Shown in pieces: positions 54,573-60,540 of a stretch of 64,000 nucleotides of DNA. The DNA lies in IMG/VR virus record IMGVR_UViG_3300017767_002783, positions 1,249 to 65,248 of that record. One strand, given 5' to 3'. The translations under genes and the position numbers were made by a program. Source of the stretch: a virus. Each line of letters begins with the position of its first letter. The stretch's first letter is position 1. The notes under the pieces were generated by a model. That model saw only the letters and a list, made by a program, of their open reading frames with translations, was not told the DNA's origin and made no database searches.

Positions 54573-55193
54573 ATGTCAAAACAATTAATAGTAGATTATT
54601 TACCTTTTGAGATTTCAAGAGAACAGATAAACGAATCAATTAAACAGAATAATGGTCGTTTAGTGGTTCATGGTGTATTGCAGAGGTCAGATGCTAAGAA
54701 TCAAAATGGTAGAGTCTATCCACATGAGATTTTGGCAAGAGAATCGAGTAAGTATGATGAGGGTTTCATCAAACAGAAACGTGCAATGGGTGAGTTAGAC
54801 CATCCTGAATCATCAGTAGTTAATTTACAGAATGTATCTCATAATATTACCGAAATGCATTGGGAAGGTAAGAACTTAGTCGGTACGGTCGAGGTTCTTG
54901 GAACACCAAGTGGTAATATATTAACAGAATTATTTAAAGCAGGTATTAAGTTGGGTATCAGTTCTCGTGGAATGGGTTCAGTTCAACCAATGAGTGAGGG
55001 TGATGGACAACAAGTAGGAGATGATTTCGAATTAATAGCTTTTGATTTCGTATCAAATCCATCCACACACGGAGCTTTCTTATATCCTATGAAAGAAAGT
55101 GTTGGAAACGAAATACCAATTACCGAAGGTAGAACCTGTGGTAAGTATTGTAAAGTTGAAAGTATTATAAACGACATAATTAGAGGAGAGTAA
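54573..55193 (+). CDS. gp21: Prohead maturation protease (T4 gp21-like)
   Basis: [31 protein letters not shown]. Confidence 0.93.
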
Positions 55194-55194
55194 A

Positions 55195-55677
55195 ATGGCC
55201 AAACTAACAAAATTAATAAGTGAGAGTAAAGTCCTCAAACGAGAGTTTGGTGAAGCACTTCCTACTTTCAGTAGTGTAATGAAAAAACACCAAGAGAATA
55301 AATTTAAAGAAGATTTAGATGCTGTCGGTAAAGAGGATGATGATGTGGATAACGATGGTGATTCAGATAAAACTGATGATTATCTAAAAAATCGTAGAAA
55401 AGTAGTTGCTAAAGCTATCAAGAAGGATTCTGTAAAAGAAGATGCAATTCGTAAGCTTGTTCGTAACGAAATTAAAAATATAGTAGAGGCTGATGAGTTT
55501 GACCAACCTGTACCTGCACAAATAGAAAGATATTTAAAGAAATTTCTTAACGCAGTACAAGGTGCTAGACTTAATCGTAGAAGGGTAACAGCAATACTTG
55601 GTCGTGTTGTTAAACAGCTAAATATAGAACCAAGTGAATTGATGAGATATGTTAGAAAAGTCAAAAAGGGATTATAA
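55195..55677 (+). CDS. Hypothetical protein with [10 protein letters not shown] leader and DxDxDG-like motif
   Basis: AGGAG SD; [14 protein letters not shown]. Confidence 0.65.
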
Positions 55678-55865
55678 TGAATAAAGCTGATACATTTAAA
55701 ATGAACAAAAATTGGAGAAAGTTTAGACTTCAAACTAATGAAGAGCAAAAAACAGAATCTAAAATTAAATCCATTGTCAATTCAGTAAATGAACAAAATT
55801 TAAAGAACTTATCGGAAGAAGAATTAAATAAATTCTACACCGAGGTTAAAAAAATTATAAAATAA
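55677..55865 (+). CDS. Small hypothetical protein
   Basis: TAATG coupling at both ends. Confidence 0.55.
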   Translation: MNKADTFKMNKNWRKFRLQTNEEQKTESKIKSIVNSVNEQNLKNLSEEELNKFYTEVKKIIK

Positions 55866-55918
55866 TGAAAGATGGCCACCATACTTGACCATATAGTGGT
55901 GAAGAACATCCAGTTTGG

Positions 55919-57313
55919 ATGAAACACGAGGAAGAACCTTTGGACGATTACAATAAGCGTATGAAAGAATACATTAATGATATAGTCAAACAAGAAATTG
56001 TTAGTCTCGGTGAGGAAAAGAAACGAGATTACAAAAAAGAGTATGCTAAATATGGTTCATCCACTAAGGCTAAAAAATACAGAGCAGAATTAAATAAGTA
56101 CAATCGTAAGAAAGGTACTTATGGAAATGGTGATGGTAAAGATGCCTCACACAAAGGGGGAAAGATAGTGGGATTTGAATCACAATCTAAAAACAGAGGA
56201 CGAGCAGAAAAAAGTCGTTTGAAGAAAGAAGATATAAAAGAGAAATCAATACCACACGCAAATCCAAATTACAATATGGAAAAGACGATGCAAAAATTAG
56301 CAAAGTCATTAGGTATAAAATCCGTTGTGAGTATGTATACTGGTAGTGGTAGTTTGAGTTATTTTTTAGATGATGATAGAGAAGCAAAGAAACTACAAAA
56401 ATTTTTAAAAAGGTCATTCAAGAGAGTTCGACTAATACCATTAGACAAATCAAAAGGTGATGACGCAAATTGGGTAGTAGCGGCAGATATGTTAGGATTT
56501 GAATCCATAAATGAATCGGAACAAGATAAGATAAAACAATATTTGATGAAAAAAGGTGATAATGAAAAAGACGCCACAGAAAAATTAAGATATTACGATA
56601 TGGTTACAAAGATGTACAAGAAAGCCAACTCCACCAAAAAGGCTGAAATAATGTCATCATTATGGGCTAATGAAAATGTAGCACCTAATCACGATGGTAA
56701 ATCAGCACCATATGGTAGTGGGTATGAAGAAATGGACGAAGGTAGGTCTATAAAAGAAAATCTAATACCATTTTACAAATACATGGGTGATTTCTACGGA
56801 AAAAAAGGTATTTATCCTGATAAGAAAGGTAGAGATTTGAAAGTTGGAGATATAAACAAAGCCCTTTCAGTTTATCTCAAAAAGTATTCAAATGACACTT
56901 TCACGGGCGATAGTATTGATAGAGAAAGAATCCGTGATATTCTAATCAAGATGAGAAAGTTAGATCCTGATTACTCTAAAAAAGAATCCGTAAACGAGGG
57001 TGTTAGTCAATCTCAGGCACAAGAGATAATGAAACAACTTGGTGGTAGAAAATTTGAAATGTTAATGGGTGTGAAATCAAAGGGTATCGGTAAAGATGGA
57101 TTAATCCTACATATCGGTAGAAATTCAAAGAGAGTATCACACATCATTATTGATTTAGACAGAGGTAGAGATTTATACAACTTAACATTTGGAAAGATAT
57201 ACAAGTATCAATTCAAGGTCATAAAGAAACTTAAAGGTATATATGTAGACCAATTACATGATATGATTGAAAAGTATACTGGATTATACACAACATTTGG
57301 GAGTAGAAGATGA
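55919..57313 (+). CDS. Multi-module protein with a degenerate HNH-like module; may start at 55865 through an in-frame TGA
   Basis: RDYKKEY...DASH...S.NRG (HNH-like); modules separated by INE/VNE/IKE; final KQLGGRKF...DQL...YTGLY module. Confidence 0.65.
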   Translation: MKHEEEPLDDYNKRMKEYINDIVKQEIVSLGEEKKRDYKKEYAKYGSSTKAKKYRAELNKYNRKKGTYGNGDGKDASHKGGKIVGFESQSKNRGRAEKSRLKKEDIKEKSIPHANPNYNMEKTMQKLAKSLGIKSVVSMYTGSGSLSYFLDDDREAKKLQKFLKRSFKRVRLIPLDKSKGDDANWVVAADMLGFESINESEQDKIKQYLMKKGDNEKDATEKLRYYDMVTKMYKKANSTKKAEIMSSLWANENVAPNHDGKSAPYGSGYEEMDEGRSIKENLIPFYKYMGDFYGKKGIYPDKKGRDLKVGDINKALSVYLKKYSNDTFTGDSIDRERIRDILIKMRKLDPDYSKKESVNEGVSQSQAQEIMKQLGGRKFEMLMGVKSKGIGKDGLILHIGRNSKRVSHIIIDLDRGRDLYNLTFGKIYKYQFKVIKKLKGIYVDQLHDMIEKYTGLYTTFGSRR

Positions 57314-60276: not shown

Positions 60277-60540
60277 TTGGAAGTAAAAGTAAAAAAGAAT
60301 AATGTAGAGTTCGCTCTTAGGTTATTAAAAAGAAAAATTAAAGATAGTGGTTTAATGGTAGAGTTGAGAGAAAGACAATACTATAAAAAACCATCAGCAA
60401 AAAAGTCAGAACAGAGAAAGTTGGGAAAGGTTCGTAATTGGATTAAACAACACCAAATGAATCCAGATTGGTGTGGAGAACCACCAACAGCAGGACTAAA
60501 AGAAAAAATTAAGAAAGAACGATTACAATACAAAAAATAA
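60277..60540 (+). CDS. rpsU: Phage-encoded ribosomal protein bS21 homologue
   Basis: VKVKKNNVEFALRLLKRKIKDSG...ELRERQYYKKPS; GGAGG SD, TTG start. Confidence 0.85.
   Translation: MEVKVKKNNVEFALRLLKRKIKDSGLMVELRERQYYKKPSAKKSEQRKLGKVRNWIKQHQMNPDWCGEPPTAGLKEKIKKERLQYKK

Follow-up and report, generated by a model that had tools for sequence, protein, structure and literature searches.

We analyzed a head gene of a T4-like phage that carries a UGA codon inside its reading frame, close to the start (the UGA gene). It lies on a 64,000-nt stretch of viral DNA, here called the window, which corresponds to positions 1,249–65,248 of the IMG/VR record IMGVR_UViG_3300017767_002783. This record is a fragment with about 30% GC and an estimated completeness of 56%. 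The UGA gene is surrounded by a T4-like head module with large terminase, portal, a Peptidase_S77 protease and the major capsid protein. Comparison with relatives shows that the UGA is real and strongly conserved; it is probably decoded, and the hairpin that follows it is under selection. The features of the locus are listed below, with the open reading frame abbreviated as ORF and the Shine-Dalgarno sequence as SD.

54573–55193, plus strand: prohead protease, Peptidase_S77, T4 gp21 type; two genes upstream of the UGA gene
55677–55865, plus strand: upstream gene of 62 amino acids (aa); its stop TAA (55863–55865) shares one base with the leader ATG (55865–55867), giving TAATG
55865–55885, plus strand: leader codons 1–7, M-K-D-G-H-H-T; no SD, translationally coupled to the upstream gene
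55886–55888, plus strand: in-frame TGA, candidate recoded codon (residue 8); TGA in 85 of 85 distinct relatives
55889–55918, plus strand: the ten codons P-Y-S-G-E-E-H-P-V-W from the UGA to the annotated ATG; no in-frame start codon
55907–55921, plus strand: hairpin CATCCA-GTT-TGGATG; 5' arm 55907–55912, GUU loop 55913–55915, 3' arm 55916–55921, which includes ATG 55919–55921
55919–55921, plus strand: ATG used as start by ORF callers; codon 11 after the UGA
55928–55931 and 55940–55942, plus strand: GAGG and, after a gap of 8 nt, TTG (codon 18 after the UGA); possible alternative internal start
55865–55996, plus strand: conserved 44-residue N-terminal leader domain, M1 to E44 (ending I-V-K-Q-E); past E44, relatives split into differing module strings
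55919–57313, plus strand: annotated ORF, 464 aa, stop TGA; in frame with ATG 55865 and TGA 55886
55865–57313, plus strand: full frame with the UGA decoded, 482 residues, own stop TGA; putative head-cargo polyprotein of small modules

An initial annotation of the window had pointed to this arrangement as a candidate for selenocysteine (Sec) insertion. The positions it gave are correct, i.e., TAATG at 55863–55867, ATG 55865, TGA 55886–55888 and ATG 55919 lie in one frame, and the hairpin spans 55907–55921 with its loop exactly 24 nt after the UGA. Start-stop coupling, which had been described as running through the genome, is common in the window in the form of one-base TAATG and four-base ATGA overlaps. 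AGGAG-type SD sequences precede 34 of 60 genes in the window. The leader start has none, and no canonical SD is found 5–13 nt ahead of ATG 55919, as had been noted before. TGA was also rightly taken as an otherwise normal stop; it closes 22 of the 71 long ORFs in the window, including the UGA gene itself. In relatives, the leader start, ATG or GTG, invariably shares bases with or adjoins the stop codon of the upstream gene (TAATG, TAGTG or TAA-A-ATG), and the identity of that upstream gene varies.

Relatives were collected with DNA anchors that left the stop codon free, i.e., the post-stop peptide, W-[MV]-K-H..E-P and, for metagenome contigs, E-H-P-V-W-[MVI]-K-H. Among the matches listed, viral and marine metagenome contigs yielded 85 distinct 120-nt family sequences, to which the counts of relatives given here refer. 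All 85 carry TGA at the site, never TGG, TGY, TAA, TAG or another codon. Frame and spacing around the UGA are constant throughout, with the UGA at codon 7 or 8. Although genes in this genome end most often in TAA, neither TAA nor TAG ever occupies the conserved site. Whether homologues would have Cys, Trp or a conserved TGA had been raised in the initial annotation, as had conservation upstream of ATG 55919: the relatives have the conserved TGA and no Cys or Trp forms, and the leader is kept, with x-His-Thr before the UGA. A nonsense mutation, one of the alternatives named there, is excluded, because all distinct relatives keep the TGA.

More generally, a sequencing error, a nonsense allele, a pseudogene or a reassigned code in which TGA means Trp or Gly might account for the in-frame TGA, and public sets indeed contain versions of the N-terminus with W at this site. 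We consider an origin of this kind very improbable, given that 85 independent assemblies agree on TGA. Neither a word search in 5.8 billion proteins nor a profile search in 1.84 billion representative proteins, which returned family members only, contained a genuine Trp homologue. The ‘W’ proteins (P0002–P0008 and P0023–P0028, loci L167–L169) are code-4 gene calls made on short contigs over a real TGA. For three of them, P0002, P0005 and P0008, the contigs of origin were located, and translation there requires TGA to be read as W; the others are presumably of the same kind. Such code-4 versions in public protein sets are annotation artefacts that could mislead searches for Sec or Trp homologues. 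Three forms that seem to lack the TGA (P0033, P0034 and P0038) trace back to error-prone, polished long-read assemblies marred by indels; in two of these contigs, L176 and L177, which align over the site, the DNA does contain the TGA. A further long-read contig, L175, has an extra base at the UGA site, followed by different sequence.

We also rejected genome-wide reassignment of TGA and recoding of other genes, since TGA serves as a regular stop in the window and no excess of long TGA-joined frames, i.e., of in-frame TGA elsewhere, was seen in 1 Mb of family loci. A fusion with the upstream gene was discarded because no more than 21 open codons precede the UGA in its frame. Likewise, a prfB-type +1 frameshift does not fit, as the +1 frame runs into a stop after about 10 codons and it is frame 0 that is conserved.

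Coding signal was found on both sides of the UGA. Before it, His at position –2 is invariant and Thr at position –1 occurs in 84 of 85 relatives; the third positions of these codons vary freely and are saturated. Parsimony changes at first, second and third positions of the pre-UGA codons number 16/11/62. After the UGA, replacements keep to codon boundaries (P/K/E/S/A, Y/F, S/D, G/N and E/K) and indels are absent. For example, AGT-GGT-GAA is changed to GAT-AAT-AAA with the third bases retained. The first five codons after the UGA show 9/10/20 changes, a third-position excess like that of the undoubted coding region (37/17/73), at lower absolute rates. Frame 0 is the sole open frame after the UGA.

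The first 49 residues, with Cys placed at the UGA, were modeled with AlphaFold2 from a 40-sequence alignment, and the mean predicted local distance difference test score (pLDDT) was 91.6. In the model, strands H5–T7 and E14–P16 form a β-hairpin that is paired across the UGA residue (pLDDT 88–92 there), followed by a helix at about residues 26–47. Three invariant His residues, H6, H15 and H21, are located around the UGA residue. No ATG, GTG or TTG is in frame between the UGA and codon 11, and the coupled ATG is the sole in-frame start upstream. Codon 11, the annotated start, is GTG in 42, GTA in 23 and ATG in 20 of the relatives; it hence cannot be a start codon in the 27% that have GTA. The conservation of the UGA, the codon-wise substitutions, the GTA at codon 11 and the predicted fold together make in-frame decoding of the UGA likely.

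The same region could be read without any recoding. M-K-D-G-H-H-T would then be a coupled upstream ORF (uORF) of seven codons that ends at the UGA, and the polyprotein would start at codon 11 (ATG or GTG) or at codon 18 (ATG, GTG or TTG behind GAGG or AAGGA), either by reinitiation or by independent initiation. The next 30–51 nt would form a structured regulatory leader in which the hairpin acts as an operator holding codon 11. Constraint at the nucleotide level speaks for this, as synonymous change is markedly reduced over the stretch between the UGA and codon 17, and the uORF has no SD of its own. Moreover, codon 18 is always NTG (ATG in 56, GTG in 19, TTG in 10 relatives), with nine changes at the first position and none at the second or third, and in about three-quarters of the relatives an SD-like GAGG or AAGGA lies 8 nt before it. 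An internal start at codon 18, which would yield a shorter protein, is thus possible, in a phage that uses SD sequences at more than half of its genes. However, the GAGG is degraded to GAGA in about one-quarter of the relatives, through at least five separate changes, and NTG at codon 18 can also come from single-step M/V/L changes off ATG.

A precedent for such an operator is found in the MS2 replicase operator and in the split ribosome-binding sites of T4 genes 25 and 38, where, as here, a small hairpin holds or adjoins a candidate start and a short coupled ORF lies upstream; the ATG or GTG in the 3' arm of our hairpin recalls the MS2 case in particular. In contrast to these operators, the stop codon is fixed as UGA in the present family, and the sequence from stop to start evolves like protein, which is not required of an operator. 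The uORF reading also leaves unexplained why TAA and TAG never occur, why conservative substitutions after the stop respect codon boundaries, why only that frame stays open and why AlphaFold2 pairs strands confidently across the stop. Together with the GTA at codon 11, this leads us to regard it as unlikely.

The hairpin starts 18 nt after the UGA and has its loop G at the 24-nt distance given above. The single sequence provides weak evidence for it, as the 101-nt fold has z = –2.25 and 3 of 200 shuffles fold as well. The relatives place it above chance, because the TGA is present in 85 of 85, its distance to the hairpin is constant, the stem covaries and the loop does not change. In the 93-nt alignment the hairpin is the only consensus structure, with –4.95 kcal/mol. 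Columns 54 and 64, which pair the third base of the His codon with the first base of codon 11, are C-G in 53, U-A in 19 and U-G in 9 sequences, unpaired in none and never C-A; their covariation score was reached by 0 of 500 shuffles. On a tree built without the paired columns, 14 joint-state changes were counted at them, and nearly all leader subtypes include U-A, U-G and C-G forms. All 85 relatives have CCA (Pro) and GTT (Val) although the search pattern had left the third base free, and nearby four-fold sites vary freely. Even where a change would be synonymous, the loop bases A-GUU-U stay the same; they are therefore constrained as RNA, which suggests a sequence-specific binding partner. 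The motif YCCAGTTTGGR is largely confined to this setting, i.e., 153 of its 158 matches in 1 Mb of fetched loci fall in UGA-leader context. By these comparisons, the hairpin is under selection.

Two other RNA candidates in the region were rejected. A second hairpin around the UGA appears in the single-sequence fold; its pairs break in relatives and it is missing from the consensus fold. A group I intron match in Rfam (55880–56004) scored 15.4 bits against a gathering score of 50, with E = 0.15, and is taken as chance, the region being coding and too short.

A decoded UGA need not involve selenium. In programmed leaky readthrough, a near-cognate tRNA such as tRNA-Trp, or an opal suppressor tRNA encoded outside the sequenced fragments, would read the codon. 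The UGA would then act as a valve keeping cargo polyprotein at a low, fixed ratio to the upstream product, with H-T and the mostly UGA-C context tuning termination, and the hairpin would modulate termination or block internal starts. All evidence for in-frame translation fits this explanation equally well. That UGA, the leakiest stop, is strictly kept and never exchanged for a sense codon is more in line with a regulatory role of the stop than with a catalytic residue. The penultimate residues before the UGA are conserved, and the base next to the UGA is C in 79 of 85 relatives. Poole, Brown and Tate reportedly found in 1995 that UGA-C is the weakest RF2 signal in E. coli. Leaky readthrough would also work in any host, possibly including hosts without Sec, which suits a globally distributed phage family.

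Bacteriophage Qβ offers a precedent, since UGA readthrough of its coat protein yields the minor capsid protein A1. Both systems are phage genes in which UGA is specifically kept, and a leaky UGA would provide a small, fixed share of a longer structural product. In contrast to Qβ, the short product here would comprise just seven residues, the gene has its UGA at the 5' end, the phage is a double-stranded DNA (dsDNA) T4-like phage, and a conserved hairpin lies downstream, whereas Qβ needs none. Further points disfavor leaky readthrough: the base after the UGA is not fixed, as A, G and T also occur; the invariant loop points to specific binding by a partner; no tRNA was detected in the family contigs scanned; and the three invariant His suggest that the residue itself matters. 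To our knowledge, no bacterial readthrough signal employs a downstream hairpin, and a structure 18 nt away is too distant for the mRNA entry channel. We consider this explanation somewhat unlikely.

The explanation that we favor is that the UGA is decoded, possibly as Sec. The gene would start at ATG 55865 rather than at 55919. Ribosomes would reach this ATG by TAATG coupling, translate M-K-D-G-H-H-T and meet the UGA at 55886, which would be decoded instead of terminating the protein. The hairpin at 55907–55921 with its invariant GUU loop would work as a bacterial-type selenocysteine insertion sequence (SECIS) and recruit host SelB with Sec-tRNA(Sec) while the UGA sits in the A site. Sec would then be placed at the start of the β-hairpin turn beside H6, H15 and H21; three His next to Sec suggest a metal site. 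The leader would later be removed by the prohead protease.

In the bacterial SECIS signature, as known from E. coli fdhF, the Moorella SelB-SECIS complex and the bSECISearch model, G-U stands at the 5' side of the apical loop, 16–37 nt after the UGA. The family matches this signature in having a conserved in-frame UGA, coding sequence past it and a GU-starting loop at 24 nt, within that range. Like bacterial selenoprotein genes with a SelB-bound SECIS inside the ORF, the family has a conserved in-frame UGA after which coding continues. The hairpin resembles a bacterial SECIS in that it is a stem-loop in the coding sequence 3' of the UGA, with G-U on the 5' side of its loop, a fixed distance of 24 nt and a loop conserved beyond what the protein needs. 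We tentatively propose, by this analogy, that the UGA may be read as Sec through the SECIS-like hairpin; our confidence stays a little below even.

Several observations weigh against selenocysteine. The family differs from bacterial selenoprotein genes in belonging to a phage, in having the UGA at codon 7 or 8 and in placing it within the leader of a capsid-cargo polyprotein; this leader is probably cleaved off, and a costly amino acid would be unexpected there. The family has neither a CxxU-type redox motif nor a known Cys homologue; no Cys form was found in either of the two protein searches described above. Most selenoprotein families include Cys forms. The hairpin also departs from bacterial SECIS elements. 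Its stem has only 5–6 bp, at about –5 kcal/mol, its loop has 3 nt (or 5 nt), and it starts 18 nt after the UGA, whereas the minimal E. coli SECIS starts 11 nt after it. No Rfam SECIS model matches; Rfam models cover bacterial SECIS poorly. The invariant NTG at codon 18 as a possible internal start was described above. Moreover, neither the window nor four related viral records, each of them a fragment, yielded a tRNA-Sec, any other tRNA, selB or selD. A weak host hint comes from the bS21 gene at 60277–60540 in the head module, the only cultured-phage matches of which are the Pelagibacter phages HTVC008M and Mosig (E ~1e-5). Pelagibacter has been used as a control lacking selC (preprint 10.64898/2026.04.03.716425).

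In favor of Sec, the same preprint reports complete Sec machinery in Actinomarina, an abundant low-GC marine lineage (10.64898/2026.04.03.716425). Capsid and terminase are nearest to those of a Microcystis phage and of Flavobacterium phages, with 53–56% identity. Flavobacterium and Microcystis lineages make little use of SD sequences, yet the frequent SD use in the window argues against an SD-poor host. In bacterial genomes the anchor pattern gave five matches; the one checked (L173) lacks TGA at the family spacing, and none was used for host assignment. Taken together, these host clues are weak and do not agree with one another.

Of the initial proposal of Sec insertion, several parts are well borne out by UGA conservation, substitutions, GTA, AlphaFold2 and covariation: ATG 55865 as the probable true start, the UGA as part of a conserved and probably translated N-terminus, and the hairpin as a probably functional element. 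Sec itself is not established, with no Cys or Trp homologue and no Sec genes on the fragments. With this reservation, we put forward the possibility, somewhat less likely than not, that the family may be a phage-only selenoprotein family of abundant ocean T4-like phages in which a mini-domain of Sec and three His, a putative metal site, is carried at the N-terminus of cargo polyproteins and depends on host SelB and an unusually small SECIS inside the ORF. Standard searches for Sec/Cys pairs would miss this family, because no Cys relatives are known.

Past the leader, the 464-aa product contains four small PHROGs in series, i.e., 6437, 31711, 7799 and 9437. In relatives (L001–L043), the same leader precedes bodies that range from 258 to more than 951 aa and in which the modules are shuffled. 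The joints between modules resemble ES[VI]NE. The post-leader protein resembles a polyprotein that the prohead protease would process. The leader ends in V-[KR]-[EQ]-E ahead of variable cargo and is probably cleaved off by the same protease; both this cleavage and the packaging of the cargo are what we infer from the sequence. The leader itself has no known family or fold, as no Pfam family matched, the best PDB sequence hit had E = 0.27, Foldseek gave E ≥5 and VIA-align Z ≤3.8.

The organization is reminiscent of the T4 internal proteins and Alt, in which a targeting sequence is cut by gp21. Here, too, the gene is part of the head module and is located two genes downstream of a Peptidase_S77 protease, variable cargo is preceded by a conserved N-terminal leader, and the module joints end in Glu. 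Moreover, neighboring genes bear an M-x-K-L-x-x-L-L-x-E leader like that of the T4 internal proteins. Unlike in those proteins, the leader of the UGA gene has 44 residues, is predicted to fold into a β-hairpin and a helix and contains the UGA, and its cleavage and packaging are putative.

Leader and cargo occur in more than one combination. L168, a 1.4-kb metagenome contig, carries two UGA-leader genes (L168:57–149 and L168:1147–1239) with a 62-aa gene between them. Because of these two copies, the leader with UGA and hairpin can be regarded as a reusable module placed on more than one cargo gene. At L007:2500–4398, the same cargo modules, PHROG 6437-like and others, stand in a different phage context behind another N-terminus (M-P-A-K-S-K-A-Q-Q-R-F-M-G...) without the UGA leader. 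The cargo modules are hence not tied to the UGA leader. The order of protease, 160-aa gene, small gene and UGA-leader gene recurs in the relative L025. This relative (record G004, 37,016 bp) is rated 97% complete by CheckV, yet it shows the same T4-like head-module order, with a UGA-leader gene of 951 codons; its CheckV completeness looks wrong. The other records of the clade in this analysis are 26–56% complete.

A phrase search across some 8.4 million papers yielded no description of a phage-encoded selenoprotein, and the selenoprotein reviews and the database paper that we checked do not mention phages. The UGA-leader family occurs in ocean T4-like phages and is globally distributed. If the UGA is decoded, public annotations truncate the family, through an internal start or a wrong genetic code, and miss its most conserved domain. 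If leaky readthrough is true, a hairpin-associated UGA valve at the start of a structural gene of dsDNA phages would be a new way to set cargo stoichiometry. If Sec is true, the family would be a natural phage-encoded selenoprotein family that links particle assembly to host selenium metabolism. The host range of these phages would then be restricted and hence predictable, and the known range of bacterial-type SECIS elements would be enlarged.

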